Shown: piece after piece, positions 1-20,716 of the stretch
How positions within the stretch are numbered: position 1 is the stretch's first letter
How the letters are laid out: every line of letters starts with the position of its first letter
From: Psammoneis japonica
Taxonomy: Eukaryota
Reading direction: 5' to 3'
Assembly: GCA_008632985.1 (NCBI GenBank)
Contig: QPGO01000001.1
Span: forward strand, 1,148,404-1,169,119
Length of the DNA stretch: 20,716 nt
Program-made: the position numbers and the translations under genes
The notes under the pieces: model-generated
Database searches by the model: none
The model's input: only the letters and a program-made list of their open reading frames with translations
Told to the model about the DNA's origin: nothing

Positions 1-3000
1 ACGTTACGGTAGAAGACAGCGTAAGGGGTGCGATCACCAACCTGGTTTCGGGAGATTCAGACAATGACGGAAAGCTTGATTTGGATGAAACGTGGATCTT
101 CGAGGACTACGGATCGCACAAGTCGGTGTCTACAATAACACCGGATCGACCGAGGCTACAGCGAATGGAAAGAAGGTTGACGATTCCGACCCCACATCTT
201 ATTACGGCGTGAACGCGTCCATCGGCATTGACACAGTCACTAACGGCCAAGACGGGCCTAACATCAATGTGGGAGAACCCGTCACCTGGACTTATACTGT
301 CAAAAACCTGGGCAACGAGCCTCTCACCAATATCACGGTACGGGACAGCGAGGGAGGACCGGTTACCAACCTCCTCCGTGGCGATTCAAACGGGGACGGA
401 ACTTGGATCCGACCGAAACTTGGGTGTACGAGCTACGGCACCGCCGATGAGGGAGTGTACAACAACACTGGATCGACGTCGGCCCTGTCCAACGGTCAGC
501 CTGTGAATGCAACGGACCCCACGTCTTACTTTGGCGTGAATGCATCGATCTTGATTGACACAGTGACCAATGGCTACGATGGATTGGACATCGATAAGGG
601 AAAGAACGTCACGTGGAAATACACAGTGACCAATGGAGGCAACTTTGAACTGTCAAACGTTACGGTAGAAGACAGCGTAAGGGGTGCGATCACCAACCTG
701 GTTTCGGGAGATTCAGACAATGACGGAAAGCTTGATTTGGATGAAACGTGGATCTTCGAGGACTACGGGATCGCACAAGTCGGCGTCTACAACAACACCG
801 GATCGACCGAGGCTACAGCGAATGGAAAGAAGGTTGACGATTCCGACCCCACATCTTATTACGGCGTGAACGGGTCCATCGGCATTGACACAGTCACTAA
901 CGGCCAAGACGGGCCTAACATCAATGTGGGAGAACCCGTCACCTGGACTTATACTGTCAAAAACCTGGGCAACGAGCCTCTCACCAATATCACGGTACGG
1001 GACAGCAGGGAGGACCGGTTACCAACCTCCTCCGTGGCGATTCAAACGGGGACGGAAACTTGGATCCGACCGAAACTTGGGTGTACGAAGCATACGGCAT
1101 CGCCGATGAGGGAGTGTACAACAACACTGGATCGACGTCGGCCCTGTCCAACGGTCAGCCTGTGAATGCAACGGACCCCACGTCTTACTTTGGCGTGAAT
1201 GCATCGATCTTGATTGACACAGTGACCAATGGCTACGATGGATTGGACATCGATAAGGGAAAGAACGTCACGTGGAAATACACAGTAACCAATGGAGGCA
1301 ACTTTGAACTGTCAAACGTTACGGTAGAAGACAGCGTAAGGGGTGCGATCACCAACCTGGTTTCGGGAGATTCAGACAATGACGGAAAGCTTGATTTGGA
1401 TGAAACGTGGATCTTCGAGGACAACGGAATCGCACAAGTCGGTGTCTACAATAACACCGGATCGACCGAGGCTACAGCGAATGGAAAGAAGGTTGACGAT
1501 TCCGACCCCACATCTTATTACGGCGTGAACGCGTCCATCGGCATTGACACAGTCACTAACGGCCAAGACGGGCCTAACATCAATGTGGGAGAACCCGTCA
1601 CCTGGACTTATACTGTCAAAAACCTGGGCAACGAGCCTCTCACCAATATCACGGTACGGGACAGCGAGGGAGGACCGGTTACCAACCTCCTCCGTGGCGA
1701 TTCAAACGGGGACGGAAACTTGGATCCGACCGAAACTTGGGTGTACGAGGCCTACGGCACCGCCGATGAGGGAGTGTACAACAACACTGGATCGACGTCG
1801 GCCCTGTCCAACGGTCAGCCTGTGAATGCAACGGACCCCACGTCTTACTTTGGCGTGAATGCATCGATCTTGATTGACACAGTGACCAATGGCTACGATG
1901 GATTGGACATCGATAAGGGAAAGAACGTCACGTGGAAATACACAGTAACCAATGGAGGCAACTTTGAACTGTCAAACGTTACGGTAGAAGACAGCGTAAG
2001 GGGTGCGATCACCAACCTGGTTTCGGGAGATTCAGACAATGACGGAAAGCTTGATTTGGATGAAACGTGGATCTTCGAGGACTACGGGATCGCACAAGTC
2101 GGCGTCTACAATAACACCGGATCGACCGAGGCTACAGCGAATGGAAAGAAGGTTGACGATTCCGACCCCACATCTTATTACGGCGTGAACGCGTCCATCG
2201 GCATTGACACAGTCACTAACGGCCAAGACGGGCCTAACATCAATGTGGGAGAACCCGTCACCTGGACTTATACCGTCAAAAACCTGGGCAATGAGCCTCT
2301 CACCAATATCACGGTACGGGACAGCGAGGGAGGACCGGTTACCAACCTCCTTCGTGGCGATTCAAACGGGACGGAAACTTGGATCCGACCGAAACATGGG
2401 TGTACGAGGCCTACGGCACCGCCGATGAGGGAGTGTACAACAACACTGGATCGACGTCGGCCCTGTCCAACGGTCAGCCTGTGAATGCAACGGACCCCAC
2501 GTCTTACTTTGGCGTGAATGCATCGATCTTGATTGACACAGTGACCAATGGCTACGATGGATTGGACATCGATAAGGGAAAGAACGTCACGTGGAAATAC
2601 ACAGTAACCAATGGAGGCAACTTTGAACTGTCAAACGTTACGGTAGAAGACAGCGTAAGGGGTGCGATCACCAACCTGGTTTCGGGAGATTCAGACAATG
2701 ACGGAAAGCTTGATTTGGATGAAACGTGGATCTTCGAGGACTACGGAATCGCACAAGTCGGTGTCTACAACAACACCGGATCGACCGAGGCTACAGCGAA
2801 TGGAAAGAAGGTTGACGATTCCGACCCCACATCTTATTACGGCGTGAACGCGTCCATCGGCATTGACACAGTCACTAACGGCCAAGACGGGCCTAGCATC
2901 AATGTGGGAGAACCCGTCACCTGGACTTATACTGTCAAAAACCTGGGCAACGAGCCTCTCACCAATATCACGGTACGGGACAGCAAGGGAGGACCGGTTA

Positions 3001-6000
3001 CCAACCTCCTCCGTGGCGATTCAAACGGGGACGGAAACTTGGATCCGACCGAAACTTGGGTGTACGAAGCATACGGCATCGCCGATGAGGGAGTGTACAA
3101 CAACACTGGATCGACGTCGGCCCTGTCCAACGGTCAGCCTGTGAATGCAACGGACCCCACGTCTTACTTTGGCGTGAATGCATCGATCTTGATTGACACA
3201 GTGACCAATGGCTACGATGGATTGGACATCGATAAGGGAAAGAACGTCACGTGGAAGTACACAGTGACCAATGGAGGCAACTTTGAACTGTCAAACGTTA
3301 CGGTAGAAGACAGCGTAAGGGGTGCGATCACCAACCTGGTTTCGGGAGATTCAGACAATGACGGAAAGCTTGATTTGGATGAAACGTGGATCTTCGAGGA
3401 CTACGGAATCGCACAAGTCGGTGTCTACAACAACACCGGATCGACCGAGGCTACAGCGAATGGAAAGAAGGTTGACGATTCCGACCCCACATCTTATTAC
3501 GGCGTGAACGCGTCCATCGGCATTGACACAGTCACTAACGGCCAAGACGGGCCTAGCATCAATGTGGGAGAACCCGTCACCTGGACTTATACCGTCAAAA
3601 ACCTGGGCAACGAGCCTCTCACCAATATCACGGTACGGGACAGCGAGGGAGGACCGGTTACCAACCTCCTTCGTGGCGATTCAAACGGGGACGGAAACTT
3701 GGATCCGACCGAAACTTGGGTGTACGAAGCATACGGCACCGCCGATGAGGGAGTGTACAACAACACTGGATCGACGTCGGCCCTGTCCAACGGTCAGCCT
3801 GTGAATGCAACGGACCCCACGTCTTACTTTGGCGTGAATGCATCGATCTTGATTGACACAGTGACCAATGGCTACGATGGATTGGACATCGATAAGGGAA
3901 AGAACGTCACGTGGAAATACACAGTGACCAATGGAGGCAACTTTGAACTGTCAACGTTACGGTAGAAGACAGCGTAAGGGGTGCGATCACCAACCTGGTT
4001 TCGGGAGATTCAGACAATGACGGAAAGCTTGATTTGGATGAAACGTGGATCTTCGAGGACAACGGAATCGCACAAGTCGGTGTCTACAATAACACCGGAT
4101 CGACCGAGGCTACAGCGAATGGAAAGAAGGTTGACGATTCCGACCCCACATCTTATTACGGCGTGAACGCGTCCATCGGCATTGACACAGTCACTAACGG
4201 CCAAGACGGGCCTAACATCAATGTGGGAGAACCCGTCACCTGGACTTATACTGTCAAAAACCTGGGCAACGAGCCTCTCACCAATATCACGGTACGGGAC
4301 AGCGAGGGAGGACCGGTTACCAACCTCCTCCGTGGCGATTCAAACGGGGACGGAAACTTGGATCCGACCGAAACTTGGGTGTACGAGGCCTACGGCACCG
4401 CCGATGAGGGAGTGTACAACAACACTGGATCGACGTCGGCCCTGTCCAACGGTCAGCCTGTGAATGCAACGGACCCCACGTCTTACTTTGGCGTGAATGC
4501 ATCGATCTTGATTGACACAGTGACCAATGGCTACGATGGATTGGACATCGATAAGGGAAAGAACGTCACGTGGAAATACACAGTGACCAATGGAGGCAAC
4601 TTTGAACTGTCAAACGTTACGGTAGAAGACAGCGTAAGGGGTGCGATCACCAACCTGGTTTCGGGAGATTCAGACAATGACGGAAAGCTTGATTTGGATG
4701 AAACGTGGATCTTCGAGGACTACGGAATCGCACAAGTCGGTGTCTACAATAACACCGGATCGACCGAGGCTACAGCGAATGGAAAGAAGGTTGACGATTC
4801 CGACCCCACATCTTATTACGGCGTGAACGCGTCCATCGGCATTGACACAGTCACTAACGGCCAAGACGGGCCTAACATCAATGTGGGAGAACCCGTCACC
4901 TGGACTTATACTGTCAAAAACCTGGGCAACGAGCCTCTCACCAATATCACGGTACGGGACAGCGAGGGAGGACCGGTTACCAACCTCCTCCGTGGCGATT
5001 CAAACGGGGACGGAAACTTGGATCCGACCGAAACTTGGGTGTACGAAGCATACGGCACCGCCGATGAGGGAGTGTACAACAACACTGGATCGACGTCAGC
5101 CCTGTCCAACGGTCAGCCTGTGAATGCAACGGACCCCACGTCTTACTTTGGCGTGAATGCATCGATCTTGATTGACACAGTGACAAATGGCTACGATGGA
5201 TTGGACATCGATAAGGGAAAGAACGTCACGTGGAAGTACACAGTGACCAATGGAGGCAACTTTGAACTGTCAAACGTTACCGTAGAAGACAGCGTAAGGG
5301 GTGCGATCACCAACCTGGTTTCGGGAGATTCGGACAATGACGGAAAGCTTGATTTGGATGAAACGTGGATCTTCGAGGACTACGGGATCGCACAAGTCGG
5401 CGTCTACAACAACACCGGATCGACCGAGGCTACAGCGAATGGAAAGAAGGTTGACGATTCCGACCCCACATCTTATTACGGCGTGAACGCGTCCATCGGC
5501 ATTGACACAGTCACTAACGGCCAAGACGGGCCTAACATCAATGTGGGAGAACCCGTCACCTGGACTTATACTGTCAAAAACCTGGGCAACGAGCCTCTCA
5601 CCAATATCACGGTACGGGACAGCAAGGGAGGACCGGTTACCAACCTCCTCCGTGGCGATTCAAACGGGGACGGAAACTTGGATCCGACCGAAACTTGGGT
5701 GTACGAAGCATACGGCATCGCCGATGAGGGAGTGTACAACAACACTGGATCGACGTCGGCCCTGTCCAACGGTCAGCCTGTGAATGCAACGGACCCCACG
5801 TCTTACTTTGGCGTGAATGCATCGATCTTGATTGACACAGTGACCAATGGCTACGATGGATTGGACATCGATAAGGGAAAGAACGTCACGTGGAAATACA
5901 CAGTAACCAATGGAGGCAACTTTGAACTGTCAAACGTTACGGTAGAAGACAGCGTAAGGGGTGCGATCACCAACCTGGTTTCGGGAGATTCAGACAATGA

Positions 6001-9000
6001 CGGAAAGCTTGATTTGGATGAAACGTGGATCTTCGAGGACAACGGAATCGCACAAGTCGGTGTCTACAATAACACCGGATCGACCGAGGCTACAGCGAAT
6101 GGAAAGAAGGTTGACGATTCCGACCCCACATCTTATTACGGCGTGAACGCGTCCATCGGCATTGACACAGTCACTAACGGCCAAGACGGGCCTAACATCA
6201 ATGTGGGAGAACCCGTCACCTGGACTTATACTGTCAAAAACCTGGGCAACGAGCCTCTCACCAATATCACGGTACGGGACAGCGAGGGAGGACCGGTTAC
6301 CAACCTCCTCCGTGGCGATTCAAACGGGGACGGAAACTTGGATCCGACCGAAACTTGGGTGTACGAGGCCTACGGCACCGCCGATGAGGGAGTGTACAAC
6401 AACACTGGATCGACGTCGGCCCTGTCCAACGGTCAGCCTGTGAATGCAACGGACCCCACGTCTTACTTTGGCGTGAATGCATCGATCTTGATTGACACAG
6501 TGACCAATGGCTACGATGGATTGGACATCGATAAGGGAAAGAACGTCACGTGGAAATACACAGTGACCAATGGAGGCAACTTTGAACTGTCAAACGTTAC
6601 GGTAGAAGACAGCGTAAGGGGTGCGATCACCAACCTGGTTTCGGGAGATTCAGACAATGACGGAAAGCTTGATTTGGATGAAACGTGGATCTTCGAGGAC
6701 TACGGGATCGCACAAGTCGGCGTCTACAATAACACCGGATCGACCGAGGCTACAGCGAATGGAAAGAAGGTTGACGATTCCGACCCCACATCTTATTACG
6801 GCGTGAACGCGTCCATCGGCATTGACACAGTCACTAACGGCCAAGACGGGCCTAACATCAATGTGGGAGAACCCGTCACCTGGACTTATACCGTCAAAAA
6901 CCTGGGCAATGAGCCTCTCACCAATATCACGGTACGGGACAGCGAGGGAGGACCGGTTACCAACCTCCTTCGTGGCGATTCAAACGGGGACGGAAACTTG
7001 GATCCGACCGAAACATGGGTGTACGAGGCCTACGGCACCGCCGATGAGGGAGTGTACAACAACACTGGATCGACGTCGGCCCTGTCCAACGGTCAGCCTG
7101 TGAATGCAACGGACCCCACGTCTTACTTTGGCGTGAATGCATCGATCTTGATTGACACAGTGACAAATGGCTACGATGGATTGGACATCGATAAGGGAAA
7201 GAACGTCACGTGGAAATACACAGTAACCAATGGAGGCAACTTTGAACTGTCAAACGTTACGGTAGAAGACAGCGTAAGGGGTGCGATCACCAACCTGGTT
7301 TCGGGAGATTCAGACAATGACGGAAAGCTTGATTTGGATGAAACGTGGATCTTCGAGGACTACGGAATCGCACAAATCGGTGTCTACAATAACACCGGAT
7401 CGACCGAGGCTACAGCGAATGGAAAGAAGGTTGACGATTCCGACCCCACATCTTATTACGGCGTGAACGCGTCCATCGGCATTGACACAGTCACTAACGG
7501 CCAAGACGGGCCTAACATCAATGTGGGAGAACCCGTCACCTGGACTTATACTGTCAAAAACCTGGGCAACGAGCCTCTCACCAATATCACGGTACGGGAC
7601 AGCGAGGGAGGACCGGTTACTAACCTCCTCCGTGGCGATTCAAACGGGGACGGAAACTTGGATCCGACCGAAACTTGGGTGTACGAGGCCTACGGCACCG
7701 CCGATGAGGGAGTGTACAACAACACTGGATCGACGTCGGCCCTGTCCAACGGTCAGCCTGTGAATGCAACGGACCCCACGTCTTACTTTGGCGTGAATGC
7801 ATCGATCTTGATTGACACAGTGACCAATGGCTACGATGGATTGGACATCGATAAGGGAAAGAACGTCACGTGGAAATACACAGTGACCAATGGAGGCAAC
7901 TTTGAACTGTCAAACGTTACGGTAGAAGACAGCGTAAGGGGTGCGATCACCAACCTGGTTTCGGGAGATTCAGACAATGACGGAAAGCTTGATTTGGATG
8001 AAACGTGGATCTTCGAGGACTATGGGATCGCACAAGTCGGCGTCTACAATAACACCGGATCGACCGAGGCTACAGCGAATGGAAAGAAGGTTGACGATTC
8101 CGACCCCACATCTTATTACGGCGTGAACGCGTCCATCGGCATTGACACAGTCACTAACGGCCAAGACGGGCCTAACATCAATGTGGGAGAACCCGTCACC
8201 TGGACTTATACCGTCAGAAACCTGGGCAATGAGCCTCTCACCAATATCACGGTACGGGACAGCGAGGGAGGACCGGTTACCAACCTCCTCCGTGGCGATT
8301 CAAACGGGGACGGAAACTTGGATCCGACCGAAACTTGGGTGTACGAGGCCTACGGCACCGCCGATGAGGGAGTGTACAACAACACTGGATCGACGTCGGC
8401 CCTGTCCAACGGTCAGCCTGTGAATGCAACGGACCCCACGTCTTACTTTGGCGTGAATGCATCGATCTTGATTGACACAGTGACCAATGGCTACGATGGA
8501 TTGGACATCGATAAGGGAAAGAACGTCACGTGGAAATACACAGTGACCAATGGAGGCAACTTTGAACTGTCAAACGTTACGGTAGAAGACAGCGTAAGGG
8601 GTGCGATCACCAACCTGGTTTCGGGAGATTCAGACAATGACGGAAAGCTTGATTTGGATGAAACGTGGATCTTCGAGGACAACGGAATCGCACAAGTCGG
8701 TGTCTACAATAACACCGGATCGACCGAGGCTACAGCGAATGGAAAGAAGGTTGACGATTCCGACCCCACATCTTATTACGGCGTGAACGCGTCCATCGGC
8801 ATTGACACAGTCACTAACGGCCAAGACGGGCCTAACATCAATGTGGGAGAACCCGTCACCTGGACTTATACCGTCAAAAACCTGGGCAACGAGCCTCTCA
8901 CCAATATCACGGTACGGGACAGCGAGGGAGGACCGGTTACCAACCTCCTCCGTGGCGATTCAAACGGGGACGGAAACTTGGATCCGACCGAAACTTGGGT

Positions 9001-12000: not shown

Positions 12001-12412
12001 CGTCTACAATAACACCGGATCGACCGAGGCTACAGCGAATGGAAAGAAGGTTGACGATTCCGACCCCACATCTTATTACGGGGTGAACGCGTCCATCGGC
12101 ATTGACACAGTCACTAACGGCCAAGACGGGCCTAGCATCAATGTGGGAGAACCCGTCACCTGGACTTATACTGTCAAAAACCTGGGCAACGAGCCTCTCA
12201 CCAATATCACGGTACGGGACAGCGAGGGAGGACCGGTTACCAACCTCCTCCGTGGCGATTCAAACGGGGACGGAAACTTGGATCCGACCGAAACTTGGGT
12301 GTACGAAGTATACGGCACCGCCGATGAGGGAGTGTACAACAACACTGGATCGACGTCGGCCCTGTCCAAAGGTCAGCCTGTGAATGCAACGGACTCCACG
12401 TCTTACTTTGGC
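1..12412 (+). repeat. 660-bp coding tandem array (220 aa = domain A + domain B, 330 bp each): 18 complete units, a leading partial B and a trailing A
   Basis: Unit starts (gtgaacg.gtccatcggc, VNASIG) at 209, 866, 1525, 2185, 2844, 3504, 4163, 4823, 5483, 6143, 6803, 7463, 8123, 8783, 9443, 10103, 10763, 11423 and 12083. Spacing is exactly 660 except where indels occur. Confidence 0.98.
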
Positions 12413-15400
12413 GTGAATGCATCGATCTTGATTGACACAGTGACCAACGGTTACGATGGATTGAACATCGATAATGGAAAGAACGTCACGTGGAAGTACA
12501 CAGTGACCAACACAGGCAACATTGAACTTTCCAATGTTACTGTAGAAGACAGCGTAAGGGGTACGATCACCAACCTTGTTTCGGGAGATTCAGACAAAGA
12601 CGGAAAGCTTGATTTGTTTGAAACGTGGATCTTCGAGGACTACGGAATAGCACAAGTCGGCGTCTACAACAACACCGGATCGGCCGAGGCCACAGCGAAT
12701 GGAAAAACGGTGGAAGCATCTGATTCCACGTCTTATTATGGCGTGAACGCGTCCATCGGAATCGACACAGAAACTAACGGCCAAGACGGGCCCAACATCA
12801 ATGTTGGAGAACTCGTTACCTGGACTTACACCGTCACCAACCTGGGCAGTGAGCCTCTCACCAATATCACGGTTCGGGACAGCGAGGGAGGACCGGTTAC
12901 CAACCTCCTCCGTGGCGATTCAAACGGGGACGGAAACTTGGATCCGACCGAAACGTGGGTGTACGAGGCATACGGCACCGCCGATGAGGGGGTGTTCGAC
13001 AACACCGGATCGACTTCGGCCCTGCTCAACGGCCAGCCGGTCAATAATTCAGACCCTTCGTCTTATTATGGCGTGAATGCATCTATCTTGATTGACACAG
13101 TGACCAACGGAGAGGACGGATTGGACGTTGATAGTGGGGAGGCCGTCACGTGGAAGTACACAGTGACCAACACTGGCAACTTTGAACTTTCCAACGTTAC
13201 TGTAGAAGACAGCGTAAGGGGTACGATCACCAACCGAGTTTCTGGCGATCTAGACAATGATGGAAAGCTTGATGTGTTTGAAACGTGGATCTTCGAGGAC
13301 TACGGAATCGCACAAGTCGGTGTCTACAACAACACTGGATCGACCGAGGCTACAGCGAACGGAAAGAAGGTTGACGATTCCGACCCCACCTCGTATGTCG
13401 GTTTACAGACTTCGGTGTCACCTTCTGATGCTCCAACGAACGCGCCAACAGACACACCGAGTTCTCGTCCTTCATTAACACCAACAAAGTATCCGACGGG
13501 CATTCCTAGTCAGGATCCTTCAGCTGCACCATCTTCGAGCGAATCTCCTAGTAGGATGCCTGTCGCTGCCCCATCCCGAGCACCATCGGCAGAACCGACT
13601 CTGCTCCCATCCTCAGACCCTAGCGACAAACCGACTACATCACCGACGCTTTCTCCGTCCATTGGAATCGACACAGTCACTAACGGCCAAGACGGGCCTA
13701 ACATCAATGTGGGAGAACCCGTCACCTGGACTTATACCGTCAAAAACCTGGGCAGTGAGCCTCTCACCAATATCACGGTACGGGACAGCGAGGGAGGACC
13801 GGTTACCAACCTCCTCCGTGGTGATTCAAACGGGGACGGAAACTTGGATCCGACCGAAACATGGGTGTACGAGGCCTACGGCACCGCCGATGAGGGAGTG
13901 TACAACAATACTGGATCGACGTCGGCCCTGTCCAACGGTCAGCCTGTGAATGCAACGGACCCCACGTCTTACTTTGGCGTGAACGCATCTATCTTGATTG
14001 ACACAGTGACCAACGGTTACGATGGATTGAACATCGATAATGGAAAGAACGTCACGTGGAAGTACACAGTGACCAACACAGGCAACTTTGAACTTTCCAA
14101 TGTTACTGTAGAAGACAGCGTAAGGGGTACGATCACCAACCTTGTTTCGGGAGATTCAGACAAAGACGGAAAGCTTGATTTGTTTGAAACGTGGATCTTC
14201 GAGGACTACGGAATAGCACAAGTCGGCGTCTACAACAACACCGGATCGGCCGAGGCCACAGCGAATGGAAAGACGGTGGAAGCATCTGATTCCACGTCTT
14301 ATTATGGCGTGAACGCGTCCATCGGAATCGACACAGTAACTAACGGCCAAGACGGGCCCAACATCAATGTTGGAGAACTCGTTACCTGGACTTACACCGT
14401 CACCAACCTGGGCAGTGAGCCTCTCACCAATATCACGGTTCGGGACAGCGAGGGAGGACCGGTTACCAACCTCCTCCGTGGTGATTCAAACGGGGACGGA
14501 AACTTGGATCCGACCGAAACGTGGGTGTACGAGGCATACGGCACCGCCGATGAGGGGGTGTTCGACAACACCGGATCGACTTCGGCCCTGCTCAACGGCC
14601 AGCCGGTCAATAATTCAGACCCTTCGTCTTATTATGGCGTGAATGCATCTATCTTGATTGACACAGTGACCAACGGAGAGGACGGATTGGACGTTGATAG
14701 TGGGGAGGCCGTCACGTGGAAGTACACAGTGACCAACACTGGCAACTTTGAACTTTCCAACGTTACTGTAGAAGACAGCGTAAGGGGTACGATCACCAAC
14801 CGAGTTTCTGGCGATCTAGACAATGATGGAAAGCTTGATGTGTTTGAAACGTGGATCTTCGAGGACTACGGAATCGCACAAGTCGGTGTCTACAACAACA
14901 CCGGATCGACCGAGGCTACAGCGAACGGAAAGAAGGTTGACGATTCCGACCCCACCTCGTATGTCGGTTTACAGACTTCGGTGTCACCTTCTGATGCTCC
15001 AACGAACGCGCCAACAGACACACCGAGTTCTCGTCCTTCATTCGCACCAACAAAGTATCCGACGGGCATTCCTAGTGAGGATCCTTCAGCTGCACCATCT
15101 TCGAGCGAATCTCCTAGTAGGATGCCTGTCGCAGCCCCATCCCGAGCACCATCGGCAGAACCGACTCTGCTCCCATCCTCAGACCCTAGCGACAAACCGA
15201 CTACATCACCGACGCTTTCTCCGTCCATTGGAATCGACACAGTAGCTAACGGCCAAGACGGGCCCAACATCAATGTGGGAGAACTCGTTACCTGGACTTA
15301 CACCGTCACCAACCTGGGCAGTGAGCCTCTCACCAATATCACGGTACGGGACAGCGAGGGAGGACCGGTTACCAACCTCCTCCGTGGTGATTCAAACGGG

Positions 15401-18400
15401 GACGGAAACTTGGATCCGACCGAAACGTGGGTGTACGAGGCCTACGGCACCGCCGAAGAGGGGGTGGTCGACAACACTGGATCGACGTCGGCCCTGTCCA
15501 ACGGCCAAGCAGTGAATGCCTCGGACGCTACATTTTATTTTGGCGTGAACGCATCTATCTTGATTGACACAGTGACCAACGGTTACGATGGATTGAACAT
15601 CGATAATGGAAAGAACGTCACGTGGAAGTACACAGTGACCAACACAGGCAACTTTGAACTTTCCAATGTTACTGTAGAAGACAGCGTAAGGGGTACGATC
15701 ACCAACCTTGTTTCGGGAGATTCAGACAAAGACGGAAAGCTTGATTTGTTTGAAACGTGGATCTTCGAGGACTACGGAATAGCACAAGTCGGCGTCTACA
15801 ACAACACCGGATCGGCCGAGGCCACAGCGAATGGAAAGACGGTGGAAGCATCTGATTCCACGTCTTATTATGGCGTGAACGCGTCCATCGGAATCGACAC
15901 AGTAACTAACGGCCAAGACGGGCCCAACATCAATGTTGGAGAACTCGTTACCTGGACTTACACCGTCACCAACCTGGGCAGTGAGCCTCTCACCAATATC
16001 ACGGTTTCGGGACAGCGAGGGAGGACCGGTTACCAACCTCCTCCGTGGTGATTCAAACGGGGACGGAAACTTGGATCCGACCGAAACGTGGGTGTACGAG
16101 GCATACGGCACCGGCGATGAGGGGGTGTTCGACAACACCGGATCGACTTCGGCCCTGCTCAACGGCCAGCCGGTCAATAATTCAGACCCTTCGTCTTATT
16201 ATGGCGTGAATGCATCTATCTTGATTGACACAGTGACCAACGGAGAGGACGGATTGGACGTTGATAGTGGGGAGGCCGTCACGTGGAAGTACACAGTGAC
16301 CAACACTGGCAACTTTGAACTTTCCAACGTTACTGTAGAAGACAGCGTAAGGGGTGCGATCACCAACCGGGTTTCGGGAGATTTAGACAATGATGGAAAG
16401 CTTGATGTGTTTGAAACGTGGATCTTCGAGGACTACGGGATCGCACAAGTCGGTGTCTACAACAACACCGGATCGACCGAGGCTACAGCGAACGGAAAGA
16501 AGGTTGACGATTCCGACCCCACCTCGTATGTCGGTTTACAGACTTCGGTGTCACCTTCTGATGCTCCAACGAACGCGCCAACAGACACACCGAGTTCTCG
16601 TCCTTCATTCGCACCAACAAAGTATCCGACGGGCATTCCTAGTGAGGATCCTTCAGCTGCACCATCTTCGAGCGAATCTCCTAGTAGGATGCCTGTCGCT
16701 GCCCCATCCCGAGCACCATCGGCAGAACCGACTCTGCTCCCATCCTCAGACCCTAGCGACAAACCGACTACATCACCGACGCTTTCTCCGTCCATTGGAA
16801 TCGACACAGTAGCTAACGGCCAAGACGGGCCCAACATCAATGTGGGAGAACTCGTTACCTGGACTTACACCGTCACCAACCTGGGCAGTGAGCCTCTCAC
16901 CAATATCACGGTACGGGACAGCGAGGGAGGACCGGTTACCAACCTCCTCCGTGGTGATTCAAACGGGGACGGAAACTTGGATCCGACCGAAACGTGGGTG
17001 TACGAGGCCTACGGCACCGCCGAAGAGGGGGTGGTAGACAACACTGGATCGACGTCGGCCCTGTCCAACGGCCAAGCAGTGAATGCCTCGGACGCTACAT
17101 TTTATTTTGGCGTGAACGCATCTATCTTGATTGACACAGTGACCAACGGTTACGATGGATTGAACATCGATAATGGAAAGAACGTCACGTGGAAGTACAC
17201 AGTGACCAACACAGGCAACTTTGAACTTTCCAATGTTACTGTAGAAGACAGCGTAAGGGGTACGATCACCAACCTTGTTTCGGGAGATTCAGACAAAGAC
17301 GGAAAGCTTGATTTGTTTGAAACGTGGATCTTCGAGGACTACGGAATAGCACAAGTCGGCGTCTACAACAACACCGGATCGGCCGAGGCCACAGCGAATG
17401 GAAAGACGGTGGAAGCATCTGATTCCACGTCTTATTATGGCGTGAACGCGTCCATCGGAATCGACACAGTAACTAACGGCCAAGACGGGCCCAACATCAA
17501 TGTTGGAGAACTCGTTACCTGGACTTACACCGTCACCAACCTGGGCAGTGAGCCTCTCACCAATATCACGGTTCGGGACAGCGAGGGAGGACCGGTTACC
17601 AACCTCCTCCGTGGTGATTCAAACGGGGACGGAAACTTGGATCCGACCGAAACGTGGGTGTACGAGGCATACGGCACCGCCGATGAGGGGGTGTTCGACA
17701 ACACCGGATCGACTTCGGCCCTGCTCAACGGCCAGCCGGTCAATAATTCAGACCCTTCGTCTTATTATGGCGTGAATGCATCTATCTTGATTGACACAGT
17801 GACCAACGGAGAGGACGGATTGGACGTTGATAGTGGGGAGGCCGTCACGTGGAAGTACACAGTGACCAACACTGGCAACTTTGAACTTTCCAACGTTACT
17901 GTAGAAGACAGCGTAAGGGGTGCGATCACCAACCGGGTTTCGGGAGATTTAGACAATGATGGAAAGCTTGATGTGTTTGAAACGTGGATCTTCGAGGACT
18001 ACGGGATCGCACAAGTCGGTGTCTACAACAACACCGGATCGACCGAGGCTACAGCGAACGGAAAGAAGGTTGACGATTCCGACCCCACCTCGTATGTCGG
18101 TTTACAGACTTCGGTGTCACCTTCTGATGCTCCAACGAACGCGCCAACAGACACACCGAGTTCTCGTCCTTCATTCGCACCAACAAAGTATCCGACGGGC
18201 ATTCCTAGTGAGGATCCTTCAGCTGCACCATCTTCGAGCGAATCTCCTAGTAGGATGCCTGTCGCTGCCCCATCCCGAGCACCATCGGCAGAACCGACTC
18301 TGCTCCCATCCTCAGACCCTAGCGACAAACCGACTACATCACCGACGCTTTCTCCGTCCATTGGAATCGACACAGTAGCTAACGGCCAAGACGGGCCCAA

Positions 18401-20716
18401 CATCAATGTGGGAAAACTCGTTACCTGGACTTACACCGTCACCAACCTGGGCAGTGAGCCTCTCACCAATATCACGGTACGGGACAGCGAGGGAGGACCG
18501 GTTCCAAACCTCCTCCGTGGTGATTCAAACGGGGACGGAAACTTGGATCCGACCGAAACGTGGGTGTACGAGGCATACGGCACCGCGATGAGGGGGTGTT
18601 CGACAACACCGGATCGACTTCGGCCCTGCTCAACGGCCAGCCGGTCAAAATTCAGACCCTTCGTCTTATTATGGGTGAATGCATCTATCTTGATTGACAC
18701 AGTGACCAACGGAGAGGACGATTGGACGTTGATAGTGGGGAGGCCGTCACGTGGAAGTACACAGTGACCAACAACTGGCAACTTTGAACTTTCCAACGTT
18801 ACTGTAGAAGACAGCGTAAGGGGTGCGATCACCAACCGGGTTTCGGGAGATTAGACAATGATGGAAAGCTTGATGTGTTTGAAACGTGGATCTTCGAGGA
18901 CTACGGGAATCGCACAAGTCGGTGTCTACAAAACACCGGATCGACCGAGGCTACAGCGAACGGAAAGAAGGTTGACGATTCGACCCCACCTCGTATGTCG
19001 GTTTACAGACTTCGGTGTCACCTTCTGATGCTCCAACGAACGCGCCAACAGACACACCGAGTTCTCGTCCTTCATTCGCACCAACAAAGTATCCGACGGG
19101 CATTCCTAGTGAGGATCCTTCAGCTGCACCATCTTCGAGCGAATCTCCTAGTAGGATGCCTGTCGCTGCCCCATCCCGAGCACCATCGGCAAGACCGACT
19201 CTGCTCCATCCTCAGACGCTAGCGACAAACCGACTACATCACCGACGCTTTCTCCGTCCATTGGAATCGACACAGTAGCTAACGCCAGACGGGCCAACAT
19301 CAATGTGGGAAAACTCGTTACCTGGACTTACACCGTCACAACCTGGCAGTGAGCCTCTCACCAATATCACGGTTCGGGACAGCGAGGGAGGACCGTTACC
19401 AACCTCCTCCGTGGTGATTCAAACGGGGACGGAAACTTGGATCCGACCGAAACGTGGGTGTACGAGGCCTACGGCACCGCCGAAGAGGGGGTGGTCGAAC
19501 ACACTGGATCGACGTCGGCCCTGTCCAACGGCCAAGCAGTGAATGCCTCGACGCTACATTTTTTTTGGCGTGAACGCATCTATCTTGATTGACACAGTGA
19601 CCAACGGTTACGATGGATTGAACATCGATAATGGAAAGAACGTCACGTGGAAGTACACAGTGACCAACACAGGCAACTTTGAACTTTCCAATGTTATGTG
19701 GAAGACAGCGTAAGGGGTACGATCACCAACCTTGTTTCGGGAGATTCAGACAAAGACGGAAAGCTTGATTTGTTTGAACGTGGATCTTCGAGGACTACGG
19801 AATAGCACAAGTCGGTCTACAACAACACCGGATCGGCCGAGGCCAGCAGCGAATGGAAAGACGGTGGAAGCATCTGAATTCCACGTCTTATTATGGCGTG
19901 AACGCGTCATCGGAATCGACACAGTAACTAACGGCCAGACGGGCCAACATCAATTGTTGGAGAACTGCGTTACCTGGACTTACACCGTCACCAACCTGGC
20001 AGTGAGCCTCTCACCAATATCACGGTTCGGGACAGCGAGGGAGGACCGGTTACCAACCTCCTCCGTGGTGATTCAAACGGGGACGGAAAGTTGGATCCGA
20101 CCGAAACGTGGGTGTACGAGGCATACGGACCGCCGATGAGGGGGTGTTCGATAACCACGGATCGACTTCGGCCCTGCTCAACGGCCAGCCGGTCGAATAA
20201 TTCAGACCCTTCGTCTTATTATGGCGTGAATGCATCTATCTTGATTGACACAGTGACCAACGGAGAGGACGGATTGGACGTTGATAGTGGAGGCCGTCAC
20301 GTGGAAGTACACAGTGACCAACACTGGCACTTTGAACTTTCCAACGTTACTGTAGAAGACAGCGTAAGGGGTGCGATCACCAACCGAGTTTCGGGAGATT
20401 TAGACAATGATGGAAAGCTTGATGTGTTTGAACGTGGATCTTCGAGGACTTCGAATCGCACAAGTCGGTGTCTACACAACACCGGATCGACGAGGCTACA
20501 GCGAACGGAAAGAAGGTTGACGATTCCGGACCCACCTCGTATGTCGTTTACAGACTTCGGTGTCACCTTCTGATGCTCCAACGAACGCGCCAACAGACAC
20601 ACCGAGTTCTCGTCCTTCATTCGCACCAACAAAGATCCGACGGGCATTCCTAGTGAGGATCTTCAGCTGCATCTAGAGCGAATCTCCTAGTAGGATGCCT
20701 GTCGCTGCCCATCCCG
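1..20716 (+). CDS. Giant repetitive extracellular/adhesin-like protein, internal fragment (both ends outside the window; ~6,900 aa here; 58 complete Ig-like domains and 6 Pro/Ser/Thr linkers), interrupted by probable sequencing frameshifts
   Basis: ORFs 92..1165, 1060..2484, 2379..3965, 4034..16051, 15933..18767 and the fragments after 18.8 kb all encode the same repeat protein and join across small indels (~111, ~400, ~433, ~1008, ~2370, ~3954, ~16006, many after ~18586). The listed 'starts' are internal TTG/GTG codons or out-of-frame codons. Recurrent differences between copies are largely at third codon positions. Confidence 0.9.
4034..16051 (+). CDS. Longest uninterrupted segment (4005 aa) of the giant repeat protein; not an independent gene
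   Basis: Stop-free frame of about 12 kb, bounded by a 1-nt deletion at ~3954 (tcaacgtt vs tcaaacgtt) and a 1-nt insertion at ~16006 (ggtttcgg vs ggttcgg). Confidence 0.9.
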   Translation: MDETWIFEDNGIAQVGVYNNTGSTEATANGKKVDDSDPTSYYGVNASIGIDTVTNGQDGPNINVGEPVTWTYTVKNLGNEPLTNITVRDSEGGPVTNLLRGDSNGDGNLDPTETWVYEAYGTADEGVYNNTGSTSALSNGQPVNATDPTSYFGVNASILIDTVTNGYDGLDIDKGKNVTWKYTVTNGGNFELSNVTVEDSVRGAITNLVSGDSDNDGKLDLDETWIFEDYGIAQVGVYNNTGSTEATANGKKVDDSDPTSYYGVNASIGIDTVTNGQDGPNINVGEPVTWTYTVKNLGNEPLTNITVRDSEGGPVTNLLRGDSNGDGNLDPTETWVYEAYGTADEGVYNNTGSTSALSNGQPVNATDPTSYFGVNASILIDTVTNGYDGLDIDKGKNVTWKYTVTNGGNFELSNVTVEDSVRGAITNLVSGDSDNDGKLDLDETWIFEDYGIAQVGVYNNTGSTEATANGKKVDDSDPTSYYGVNASIGIDTVTNGQDGPNINVGEPVTWTYTVKNLGNEPLTNITVRDSKGGPVTNLLRGDSNGDGNLDPTETWVYEAYGIADEGVYNNTGSTSALSNGQPVNATDPTSYFGVNASILIDTVTNGYDGLDIDKGKNVTWKYTVTNGGNFELSNVTVEDSVRGAITNLVSGDSDNDGKLDLDETWIFEDNGIAQVGVYNNTGSTEATANGKKVDDSDPTSYYGVNASIGIDTVTNGQDGPNINVGEPVTWTYTVKNLGNEPLTNITVRDSEGGPVTNLLRGDSNGDGNLDPTETWVYEAYGTADEGVYNNTGSTSALSNGQPVNATDPTSYFGVNASILIDTVTNGYDGLDIDKGKNVTWKYTVTNGGNFELSNVTVEDSVRGAITNLVSGDSDNDGKLDLDETWIFEDYGIAQVGVYNNTGSTEATANGKKVDDSDPTSYYGVNASIGIDTVTNGQDGPNINVGEPVTWTYTVKNLGNEPLTNITVRDSEGGPVTNLLRGDSNGDGNLDPTETWVYEAYGTADEGVYNNTGSTSALSNGQPVNATDPTSYFGVNASILIDTVTNGYDGLDIDKGKNVTWKYTVTNGGNFELSNVTVEDSVRGAITNLVSGDSDNDGKLDLDETWIFEDYGIAQIGVYNNTGSTEATANGKKVDDSDPTSYYGVNASIGIDTVTNGQDGPNINVGEPVTWTYTVKNLGNEPLTNITVRDSEGGPVTNLLRGDSNGDGNLDPTETWVYEAYGTADEGVYNNTGSTSALSNGQPVNATDPTSYFGVNASILIDTVTNGYDGLDIDKGKNVTWKYTVTNGGNFELSNVTVEDSVRGAITNLVSGDSDNDGKLDLDETWIFEDYGIAQVGVYNNTGSTEATANGKKVDDSDPTSYYGVNASIGIDTVTNGQDGPNINVGEPVTWTYTVRNLGNEPLTNITVRDSEGGPVTNLLRGDSNGDGNLDPTETWVYEAYGTADEGVYNNTGSTSALSNGQPVNATDPTSYFGVNASILIDTVTNGYDGLDIDKGKNVTWKYTVTNGGNFELSNVTVEDSVRGAITNLVSGDSDNDGKLDLDETWIFEDNGIAQVGVYNNTGSTEATANGKKVDDSDPTSYYGVNASIGIDTVTNGQDGPNINVGEPVTWTYTVKNLGNEPLTNITVRDSEGGPVTNLLRGDSNGDGNLDPTETWVYEVYGTADEGVYNNTGSTSALSNGQPVNATDPTSYFGVNASILIDTVTNGYDGLDIDKGKNVTWKYTVTNGGNFELSNVTVEDSVRGAITNLVSGDSDNDGKLDLDETWIFEDYGIAQVGVYNNTGSTEATANGKKVDDSDPTSYYGVNASIGIETVTNGQDGPNINVGEPVTWTYTVKNLGNEPLTNITVRDSKGGPVTNLLRGDSNGDGNLDPTETWVYEVYGTADEGVYNNTGSTSALSNGQPVNATDPTSYFGVNASILIDTVTNGYDGLDIDKGKNVTWKYTVTNGGNFELSNVTVEDSVTGAITNLVSGDSDNDGKLDLDETWIFEDYGIAQVGVYNNTGSTEATANGKKVDDSDPTSYYGVNASIGIDTATNGQDGPNINVGEPVTWTYTVKNLGNEPLTNITVRDSEGGPVTNLLRGDSNGDGNLDPTETWVYGVYGTADEGVYNNTGSTSALSNGQPVNATDPTSYFGVNASILIDTVTNGYDGLDIDKGKNVTWKYTVTNGGNFELSNVTVEDSVRGAITNLVSGDSDNDGKLDLDETWIFEDYGIAQVGVYNNTGSTEATANGKKVDDSDPTSYYGVNASIGIDTVTNGQDGPNINVGEPVTWTYTVKNLGNEPLTNITVRDSEGGQVTNLLRGDSNGDGNLDPTETWVYEAYGTANEGVYNNTGSTSALSNGQPVNATDPTSYFGVNASILIDTVTNGYDGLDIDKGKNVTWKYTVTNGGNFELSNVTVEDSVRGAITNLVSGDSDNDGKLDLDETWIFEDYGIAQVGVYNNTGSTEATANGKKVDDSDPTSYYGVNASIGIDTVTNGQDGPNINVGEPVTWTYTVKNLGNEPLTNITVRDSEGGPVTNLLRGDSNGDGNLDPTETWVYEAYGIADEGVYNNTGSTSALSNGQPVNATDPTSYFGVNASILIDTVTNGYDGLDIDKGKNVTWKYTVTNGGNFELSNVTVEDSVRGAITNLVSGDSDNDGKLDLDETWIFEDYGIAQVGVYNNTGSTEATANGKKVDDSDPTSYYGVNASIGIDTVTNGQDGPSINVGEPVTWTYTVKNLGNEPLTNITVRDSEGGPVTNLLRGDSNGDGNLDPTETWVYEVYGTADEGVYNNTGSTSALSKGQPVNATDSTSYFGVNASILIDTVTNGYDGLNIDNGKNVTWKYTVTNTGNIELSNVTVEDSVRGTITNLVSGDSDKDGKLDLFETWIFEDYGIAQVGVYNNTGSAEATANGKTVEASDSTSYYGVNASIGIDTETNGQDGPNINVGELVTWTYTVTNLGSEPLTNITVRDSEGGPVTNLLRGDSNGDGNLDPTETWVYEAYGTADEGVFDNTGSTSALLNGQPVNNSDPSSYYGVNASILIDTVTNGEDGLDVDSGEAVTWKYTVTNTGNFELSNVTVEDSVRGTITNRVSGDLDNDGKLDVFETWIFEDYGIAQVGVYNNTGSTEATANGKKVDDSDPTSYVGLQTSVSPSDAPTNAPTDTPSSRPSLTPTKYPTGIPSQDPSAAPSSSESPSRMPVAAPSRAPSAEPTLLPSSDPSDKPTTSPTLSPSIGIDTVTNGQDGPNINVGEPVTWTYTVKNLGSEPLTNITVRDSEGGPVTNLLRGDSNGDGNLDPTETWVYEAYGTADEGVYNNTGSTSALSNGQPVNATDPTSYFGVNASILIDTVTNGYDGLNIDNGKNVTWKYTVTNTGNFELSNVTVEDSVRGTITNLVSGDSDKDGKLDLFETWIFEDYGIAQVGVYNNTGSAEATANGKTVEASDSTSYYGVNASIGIDTVTNGQDGPNINVGELVTWTYTVTNLGSEPLTNITVRDSEGGPVTNLLRGDSNGDGNLDPTETWVYEAYGTADEGVFDNTGSTSALLNGQPVNNSDPSSYYGVNASILIDTVTNGEDGLDVDSGEAVTWKYTVTNTGNFELSNVTVEDSVRGTITNRVSGDLDNDGKLDVFETWIFEDYGIAQVGVYNNTGSTEATANGKKVDDSDPTSYVGLQTSVSPSDAPTNAPTDTPSSRPSFAPTKYPTGIPSEDPSAAPSSSESPSRMPVAAPSRAPSAEPTLLPSSDPSDKPTTSPTLSPSIGIDTVANGQDGPNINVGELVTWTYTVTNLGSEPLTNITVRDSEGGPVTNLLRGDSNGDGNLDPTETWVYEAYGTAEEGVVDNTGSTSALSNGQAVNASDATFYFGVNASILIDTVTNGYDGLNIDNGKNVTWKYTVTNTGNFELSNVTVEDSVRGTITNLVSGDSDKDGKLDLFETWIFEDYGIAQVGVYNNTGSAEATANGKTVEASDSTSYYGVNASIGIDTVTNGQDGPNINVGELVTWTYTVTNLGSEPLTNITVSGQRGRTGYQPPPW
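13403..13657 (+). repeat. Pro/Ser/Thr-rich linker copy 1 (85 aa, P-[S/T]-x-x tetrads)
   Basis: Translates to LQTSVS-PSDA-PTNA-PTDT-PSSR-PSLT-PTKY-PTGI-PSQD-PSAA-PSSSES-PSRM-PVAA-PSRA-PSAE-PTLL-PSSD-PSDK-PTTS-PTLS-P. Confidence 0.95.
14969..15223 (+). repeat. Pro/Ser/Thr-rich linker copy 2
   Basis: Same as copy 1 except PSFA and PSED. Confidence 0.95.
16536..16790 (+). repeat. Pro/Ser/Thr-rich linker copy 3
   Basis: Same protein sequence as copy 2, within ORF 15933..18767. Confidence 0.95.
18102..18356 (+). repeat. Pro/Ser/Thr-rich linker copy 4
   Basis: Same protein sequence as copy 2, within ORF 15933..18767. Confidence 0.95.
19003..19256 (+). repeat. Pro/Ser/Thr-rich linker copy 5 (with probable read errors)
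   Basis: ORF 19015..19278 reads SPSDAPTNAPTDTPSSRPSFAPTKYP... before a frameshift. Confidence 0.9.
20548..20716 (+). repeat. Pro/Ser/Thr-rich linker copy 6 (partial, error-rich, cut by the window end)
   Basis: Nucleotide match ttacagacttcggtgtcaccttctgatgctcc... continuing to the end of the window. Confidence 0.88.

Follow-up and report, generated by a model that had tools for sequence, protein, structure and literature searches.

A tandem array of at least 58 CLIPPER_2 (DUF7507) domains with P[S/T]xx linkers: a candidate giant extracellular protein of probable eukaryotic origin

The stretch of DNA analysed here (20,716 nt in full, hereafter the window) is occupied on its plus strand, from one end to the other, by a single tandem array. 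Alignment with blastn of a clean reference pair of repeat units (positions 4172-4831) delimited 59 units, 58 of them full (~330 nt, encoding 110 amino acids) and one partial, which fall into two types, A and B, that alternate strictly and share 62% identity at the protein level. A separate repeat finder recovered 54 copies of 300 nt at a spacing of 327-330 nt. Tandem Repeats Finder returned no rows for the array that this repeat finder and blastn both detect, and its blank is thus a limit of the tool. Each unit in Region I of the array (Table 1) corresponds to one 110-residue domain of the Pfam family DUF7507, also named CLIPPER_2. Neither end of the gene lies inside the window, which opens within a B unit and closes within a linker. 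An earlier reading of this DNA (the original prediction) had proposed at least 58 tandem 110-residue domains, given a consensus pattern for them, and placed both termini outside the 20.7 kb; the two repeat counts, the translation, and the position of the window borders, respectively, bear out these claims. The best explanation for this layout is that the window represents an internal fragment of a single, very large gene, whose product would be secreted and would form an extracellular rod of at least 58 CLIPPER_2/DUF7507 domains. That it carries a real coding array of such domains we consider very probable.

Beyond Region I, the more diverged units of Region II are grouped into modules of 3, 4, 4, 4, 2, and 4 domains, each of them closed by a linker. 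Three four-domain modules follow one another at a spacing of 1566-1567 nt (unit starts at 13658, 15224, 16791, and 18357) and are nearly identical; those starting at 15224 and 16791 differ by 2 mismatches and 1 insertion. Collectively, this organization is best explained by growth of the array through recent tandem amplification and homogenisation of the 660-nt A-B pair and, farther on, of the 1566-nt module made of four domains plus linker. As a separate observation, the two-domain module (18357-19256) has four-domain neighbours and lies within an indel-rich tail, and it may be either real or the outcome of assembly collapse. Apart from the array, the window offered little: an Rfam search of it gave no matches, and the antisense and off-frame open reading frames (ORFs) of 109-135 codons that recur at the repeat period, such as those on the minus strand at 4670-4999 and 14890-15297, matched no Pfam family above cut-off. 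One ORF running across a linker yielded weak glycine-zipper matches (17.4-17.7 bits, with cut-offs of 25 and 27). These periodic ORFs were taken as by-products of the repeat.

Table 1. Coordinates of array regions, linkers, reading frame, and insertion/deletion (indel) events in the window
Feature	Position	Strand	Basis and remarks
Partial B-type unit	1..217	+	blastn; reference positions 113-330, 99.5%, 1 gap; window opens at unit position 113
Region I: 37 full 330-nt units, A/B alternation, 660-nt super-repeat	218..12421	+	97.9-100% to same-type reference unit
Region II: 21 diverged units	12422..20542	+	blastn; 86-97% to Region I reference pair
Linker 1: 82-residue P[S/T]xx tetrapeptide linker with flanking residues	13397..13657	+	translation; proline-spacing count
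Linker 2: 1 of 261 nt different from linkers 3 and 4	14963..15223	+	sequence comparison
Linker 3	16530..16790	+	sequence comparison
Linker 4: identical to linker 3	18096..18356	+	sequence comparison
Linker 5: frame broken, in indel-rich tail	18997..19256	+	gap between units 18684-18996 and 19257
Linker 6: clipped by window end	20543..20716	+	unit alignment
Longest uninterrupted frame: 4,034 codons, no start, no natural stop	3947..16048	+	ORF listing
Six 1-2 nt deletions relative to clean repeat (113, 400, 433, 1007, 2368, 3953)	113..3953	+	alignment; shift the frame
Single inserted T relative to sister module; terminates the long open frame	16005	+	alignment
Error-rich contig end: 42 indels against the sister module, most of 1 nt (35 deletions, 7 insertions)	18586..20708	+	alignment

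How literally the number and order of the modules should be taken is a distinct question. The chances are about even that both are partly a construct of the assembly, that is, that the repeat is real while the count of 58 domains and the lone two-domain module result from collapse or mis-joining. Both ends of the contig lie within the repeat, and the odd two-domain module sits in the noisy tail. Short-read contigs from two runs containing the sequence, aligned to the part of the window between 15224 and 20716 (none of them spans it entirely), point in the same direction, as they contain other joints in both runs: one leads from 15313 to 18410, skipping 3,096 nt, and another from 18981 back to 15858, a return of 3,124 nt with 5 extra letters. 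Such joints may denote either other module arrangements, in the array itself or in a second allele, or a contig order that is not unique. A further short-read contig, again found in two runs, departs from the window after position 18445 into ~255 different letters that in one frame read like another domain variant; beyond the window there are therefore more variants of the domain, or else a paralogous array. On the other side, the 330/660-nt register is consistent throughout the clean 12-kb core and individual copies have substitutions of their own, an argument that the copies are real and distinct, and an assembly artefact of this kind would leave the nature of the element unchanged.

The family of the repeated domain was established with sequence profiles. 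The A-B pair scored 56.7 bits, and a 413-aa module 74.1 bits, against DUF7507 (PF24346, CLIPPER_2; Pfam cut-off 27), and the pair also exceeded the cut-offs of DUF11 (PF01345; 38.5 versus 24.6 bits) and of TIGR01451 in NCBIfam (33.7 versus 24 bits), in line with the assignment to these three families made originally. DUF11 and DUF7507 have been renamed CLIPPER and CLIPPER_2, respectively, in a survey of isopeptide domains (10.1101/2025.04.25.650565). AlphaFold2 modelling of the A-B pair from a 34-row alignment predicted two all-beta sandwiches with 8 DSSP strands per domain (mean predicted local distance difference test, pLDDT, of 95; predicted template modelling score, pTM, of 0.81). Foldseek retrieved tandem immunoglobulin (Ig)-like domains for this model, namely those of the integrin alpha-V leg, RbmA, the C-terminal part of AgI/II BspA, and the Ig region of PrgB, so that the Ig-like fold anticipated by the original prediction was recovered. 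VIA-align gave Z scores of 10.6 for 9fyo, 9.4 for the BcpA pilin (3kpt), 9.0 for CARDB (3idu), 8.8 for 4p99, and 8.6 for 6xi3; values near 9 are common among Ig-like folds, and the structure hence supports the fold class only, with the family resting on the profiles. A sequence search of the PDB found no significant match, its top hit being filamin (E 0.18). Together, profiles and model identify the unit as a DUF7507/CLIPPER_2 (DUF11-like) domain with a predicted CnaA-like Ig-type beta sandwich, the CnaA subtype itself not being separately resolved.

According to the isopeptide survey, CLIPPER domains often alternate in tandem and typically, albeit not universally, contain a Lys-Asn isopeptide bond catalysed by Asp; the Lys and Asn of the CnaA-type bond belong to the first and the penultimate strand, respectively (10.1101/2025.04.25.650565). 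We compared the corresponding columns across a set of 1,112 near-full domains, which a profile of the window's own units had extracted from 217 homologous proteins. Column 43, on strand 4 of the model, is Asp in 99% of the homologues, and column 84, on the penultimate strand, is Asn in 94%; regular-expression scans located the respective Asp and Asn motifs in 56 and 54 copies of the window. Column 6, on the first strand, is Lys in 64% of the homologues (gap in 19%, Thr in 7%), whereas the window has Thr in all 57 readable copies. Since their strand positions fit the published description of the bond, these three columns were taken as the isopeptide triad. With the Lys position thus occupied by Thr throughout and the Asp and Asn partners kept, the array is predicted to lack the capacity for the Lys-Asn cross-link that gives the family its name: it would belong to the sequence family without being cross-linked. 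Thr in column 6 was also found in 82 of the 1,112 homologue domains, and Lys is missing from this column in 27 of the 169 homologues that have three or more full domains, in some of them only through alignment gaps. A Thr-Gln ester bond in place of the isopeptide bond was considered as well and, in view of what ester-bond domains need, rejected: the partner column holds Asn instead of Gln, and the protein is devoid of His.

A second signature of the unit is a 12-residue loop, D-x-[DN]-x-D-G-x-L-D-x-x-E, which a pattern scan located in 56 copies and whose residues L63, D64, and E67 each reach 90% conservation or more across the 34-row domain alignment. The calcium loop of EF-hands follows the pattern D-x-[DNS]-x-[DNS]-G-x-[LIV]-[DNST]-x-x-E. 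The loop of the unit has this form, and it is predicted to bind Ca2+; speaking against such binding, the Pfam family EF-hand_5 scored 15.8-19.9 bits, below its cut-off of 25.9.

The linkers that close the modules differ in nature from the domains. Their prolines recur with a period of four residues, almost invariably with Ser or Thr in the next position, and fall into two runs of 10 in each linker; together the linkers make up ~7% of the window; the module that includes its linker matched the PT repeat family PF04886 with 30.2 bits (Pfam cut-off 26.2). A search with a 90-residue linker query retrieved 44 matches from eukaryote-only sources or named eukaryotes among the 120 listed, 37 of them from EukProt (two being Seminavis robusta), 4 from MMETSP, and the remaining ones from Mediolabrus comicus, Achlya hypogyna, and Biomphalaria glabrata in NCBI. 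Ten linker matches were looked up individually: five clusters belonged to the foraminifer Nonionella stella, one to a choanoflagellate, and one contained a protein of Thalassiosira minuscula. Many of the top eukaryotic linker matches stem from one transcriptome, that of N. stella. This foraminifer keeps diatom plastids, and some of its linker-like proteins may hence be diatom-derived. At least five consecutive prolines at four-residue spacing occurred in only one of 264 domain homologues, and a search of the ESM Atlas with the linker gave no usable match. As a marker of style, the contrast between linker and domain matches in the same database is strong.

Relatives of the domain itself were sought in several collections. 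The best identity was 56% among 1.84 billion representative proteins, 56% and 53% in word-indexed searches of longer and of similar-length proteins, respectively, 58% for single domains taken from homologues, and 41-48% on JGI metagenome contigs, while the genomes of 185,579 prokaryote species gave at best 41% over the pair and up to 57% over short segments. No relative of the domain was found in the viral contigs searched. All domain relatives bearing an organism name are bacterial or archaeal (at most 56% identity over the pair and 58% per domain) and include the filamentous cyanobacteria Ancylothrix and Halomicronema along with uncultured cyanobacteria, Mesorhizobium, Bradyrhizobium, Verrucomicrobia, and Methanohalobium. 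In a quick maximum-likelihood tree of 96 domains, the six variants from the window formed one group with a support of 91 in the Shimodaira-Hasegawa-like approximate likelihood ratio test (SH-aLRT), within which A types (96) and B types (99) were each monophyletic. The group fell amid bacterial and metagenome domains, with its sister unresolved. This topology is consistent with a single acquisition, or a single ancestral domain, that gave rise to A and B by duplication and was amplified thereafter.

Two eukaryotic sequences bear on the same question. The MMETSP transcript P0387 from a marine protist (1,282 aa) combines a signal-like N-terminus, an IgGFc-binding-type region, a DUF7507-annotated domain, and long PS-rich periodic linkers, and is possibly an independent eukaryotic case of the bacterial-type domain. 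Members of the P0387 cluster occur on JGI contigs as well. A literature search combining DUF11/DUF7507 with diatom terms (supplements excluded) found no alga described with such an array and only a table entry for Phaeodactylum, where Phatr3_J48356 on chromosome 17 appears as 'DUF11 domain-containing' (PMC12113381).

Linker matches are thus largely eukaryotic while named domain matches are all prokaryotic, and for this reason the pattern fits a eukaryotic gene with a horizontally acquired domain, which is the best supported reading, yet unproven. We hold a eukaryotic host to be probable, and we also lean, on balance, towards a diatom-like megaprotein of the extracellular space for which a bacterial stalk domain served as the building block. 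Other, indirect signs point in the same direction, among them the absence of anything close from the prokaryote genomes searched. Window units contain 2-4 N-x-S/T sequons each, whereas the 1,112 homologue domains average 1.24. The codons GGA, TCG, TTG, and CAA are preferred in the array, a usage that we take to resemble that of pennate diatoms; with too few independent codons available, it was, like the dinucleotide bias, treated as a lead only. The runs containing the sequence amount to 29.9 and 140.7 million letters of contigs, and the sample was therefore not a single bacterial isolate. The original prediction had already proposed a eukaryotic gene with an acquired domain, and of this proposal the prokaryotic affinity of the named domain relatives and the eukaryotic affinity of the linker both stood, whereas the host itself is no more than probable.

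Several observations weigh against this reading. No flank, terminus, signal peptide, intron, neighbouring gene, or transcript was seen, so that support for the host assignment comes from the style of the linkers and from signs that are indirect. The closest named domain relatives are filamentous cyanobacteria (~50% identity over the pair), and EukProt and MMETSP contributed none of the 120 domain matches listed and no close relative. Lysine loss is not a eukaryotic signature, since Lys-less domains also occur among the bacterial relatives. The likeness of the linkers is one of low complexity and composition, not of homology, and marks style only; moreover, 75 of the 120 linker matches listed are unnamed metagenome proteins and one is a named bacterial protein, from a metagenome-assembled genome (MAG) of Bacteroidetes. 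A mixed bacterial community could equally account for 140 Mb of contigs, including one of 315 kb. Finally, the isopeptide survey judged eukaryotic hits in the AlphaFold Database (AFDB) to be probable contamination (10.1101/2025.04.25.650565).

These points feed the chief competitor, in which the window comes from a bacterium, such as a filamentous cyanobacterium or some other organism in a mixed culture or metagenome, and encodes part of an ordinary giant fibrillar adhesin, the contig being an orphan repeat and the PT/PS linkers bacterial. The exclusively bacterial or archaeal names of the domain relatives, with a cyanobacterial one as the best, the Bacteroidetes linker match, an amount of sample sequence far in excess of one genome, and the contamination warning of the survey all suit it. 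So does the description in the same survey of tandem DUF7507/DUF11 stalks in very long surface proteins as the bacterial norm (10.1101/2025.04.25.650565), with listed homologues of 3,000-6,700 aa. Nevertheless, no near relative turned up in the prokaryote genomes, the metagenome contigs, or the 1.84 billion proteins at identities above those given; linker matches are 44 eukaryotic to a single named bacterial one among the 120 listed, which also sustains the diatom-style linkers of the original prediction; comparable proline periodicity is confined to one of the 264 bacterial-type homologues; and sequon density exceeds the homologue mean. The codon preferences, presumably like those of pennate diatoms, lean the same way. 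All in all, we regard a bacterial adhesin as rather unlikely and retain the eukaryotic gene with an acquired domain as the preferred reading.

The integrity of the reading frame was then weighed against the layout of the contig. The original prediction of a single open frame of more than 6,900 codons did not hold: the longest frame has 4,034 codons (Table 1), and ~49 small indels interrupt the remainder. Within this frame, the translated product has no Cys, no His, and only 2 Met; Asn amounts to 11.4% of an A-B pair versus 6.7% in homologue domains. Outside it, the domain reading continues only by frame changes, and, taken literally, the window breaks into at least eight frame pieces. The indels total 41 deletions and 8 insertions, 48 of which fall in the first 4 kb or the last 2.4 kb, and no frame-breaking indel was found in the 12 kb between 3954 and 16004. 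In the part of the window aligned to short-read contigs, cover was little or none in several indel-rich bins of the tail and in the bin containing 16005, which is compatible with errors but no evidence of them. Given their crowding at both contig ends, their mostly single-base size, and their 41:8 bias towards deletions, we read the indels as sequencing or assembly noise, arising where coverage is low at either end of a long-read contig that consists of repeat only, and the real gene is most probably open. In principle, the indels could be real. Seven comparisons between unit types gave ratios of nonsynonymous to synonymous substitution rates (dN/dS) of 0.16-0.28; the coding sequence is thus under purifying selection, which makes a pseudogene unlikely. 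Indeed, a decaying pseudogene array with genuine frameshifts and no protein product, although it would take the eight or more frame pieces at face value, is highly improbable, as decay would not track contig geometry in the way these indels do (none across the middle 12 kb, 42 in the last 2.36 kb, the same deletion bias), diverged copies retain low dN/dS, and no in-frame stop occurs in 4,034 codons.

The array is a variant of two kinds already known, namely the stalks of fibrillar adhesins and diatom megaproteins of the Trailin type. With CLIPPER_2/DUF11 stalks it shares profile scores above cut-off, a compact Ig-like sandwich, long tandem arrays of two alternating types, and the conserved Asp and Asn, and it departs from them in the Thr that replaces the cross-linking Lys and in the eukaryotic-style P[S/T]xx linkers. 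Like bacterial fibrillar adhesins, it has a stalk of tandem repeated domains, 58 in the window; the part of the gene covered here shows neither an adhesive tip nor a signal or anchor, and both gene ends lie outside it. The Ca2+-stiffened extenders of giant bacterial adhesins, MpIBP region II (4p99) and Lap-type (6xi3), are likewise made of many nearly identical Ig-like domains in a row, with the proposed task of holding a distal part away from the cell, and they aligned to the model over both domains with the Z scores given above; a Ca2+ site is inferred for each domain of the window. There is, however, no shared sequence family. In these giant-adhesin extenders Ca2+ sits between domains, whereas the site predicted here is an EF-hand-like loop within each domain. 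The transcript P0387 shares PS-rich periodic linkers, a DUF7507-annotated domain, and a eukaryotic transcriptome origin for this combination, but it has only 30% identity over one domain, one or two such domains and no array, and an IgGFc-binding region in addition.

If the gene is eukaryotic, its nearest counterparts are the megaproteins of diatom adhesive trails. In Craspedostauros australis, CaTrailin4 is described as a gene of 28,951 bp that has no introns and encodes a protein of 894 kDa, rich in Pro, Thr, and Ser (PTS) and with a domain of bacterial origin, and the gene of Ca5609 as split across contigs inside its tandem repeat (10.1101/2023.03.06.531300). Like the window, both are giant, repetitive, and apparently intronless genes that defeat assembly and contain Pro/Thr/Ser-rich regions. 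The differences are nonetheless considerable: the bacterial domain of the Trailins is Choice-of-Anchor A (PF20597), which is absent from the Pfam matches of the window's A-B pair and 413-aa module; Trailin repeats (DUF1/DUF2) have six cysteines, while the window protein has none in 4,034 residues; and PTS regions represent 50-70% of Trailin-type proteins against ~7% of the window.

From these comparisons a working model can be put forward. The host would be a eukaryotic microalga or protist, most likely diatom-like, which obtained the stalk domain from bacteria and joined it to its own type of linker. The protein would be secreted and form an extended rod or fibre, serving as an extracellular fibre, an adhesive, or a surface stalk. 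The EF-hand-like loop may bind Ca2+ and hold or stiffen each domain in place of the Lys-Asn cross-link, so that the rod would be stiff wherever the water is rich in Ca2+. With the Lys-Asn bond predicted to be absent, each domain could unfold completely under force, thereby releasing hidden length and dissipating energy. Full unfolding would suit an adhesive tether or a matrix fibre, and a cross-linked CLIPPER stalk could not achieve it. The P[S/T]xx tracts may act as glycosylated, flexible spacers or hinges. An Ig domain measures ~4 nm, and 58 of them would extend over more than 230 nm, plus six extended linkers. Given a eukaryotic host, an adhesive or fibre role has roughly one chance in two, and adhesion and its target depend on parts of the gene outside the window.

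Taken to its full extent, the model amounts to the first eukaryotic megaprotein made from the bacterial CLIPPER_2 domain, in which a diatom-type alga exchanged Lys for Thr, kept the Ca2+ loop, amplified the domain ~60-fold, and inserted glycosylated spacers, thus building a fibre whose domains unfold one by one. We offer this complete scenario as a tentative proposal that is more apt to fail than to hold in all its parts. Under this scenario, each 110-residue domain should add a step of ~36-40 nm to the contour length, a figure obtained from ~0.36-0.38 nm per residue after ~4 nm is deducted for the domain in its folded state. Atomic force microscopy (AFM) on diatom adhesive nanofibres has recorded a 'modular protein' sawtooth signature, as a review reports (PMC11966768), and the product of the array, if the scenario is true, would be a candidate for it.

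The bearing of these findings varies with the host. In a bacterium, the array would simply add to the giant adhesins already known, its size and the close likeness of its copies being the only remarkable traits. With either host, it illustrates that repeat-only contigs with noisy ends can conceal very large genes. In a diatom or another protist, it would constitute the second independent giant extracellular protein of microalgae derived from a bacterial surface-protein domain, after the Choice-of-Anchor-A domain of the Trailins. The replacement of Lys by Thr with the remaining triad intact, repeated 57 times, furthermore provides a natural experiment on the part that the isopeptide bond plays in stalks of this family.

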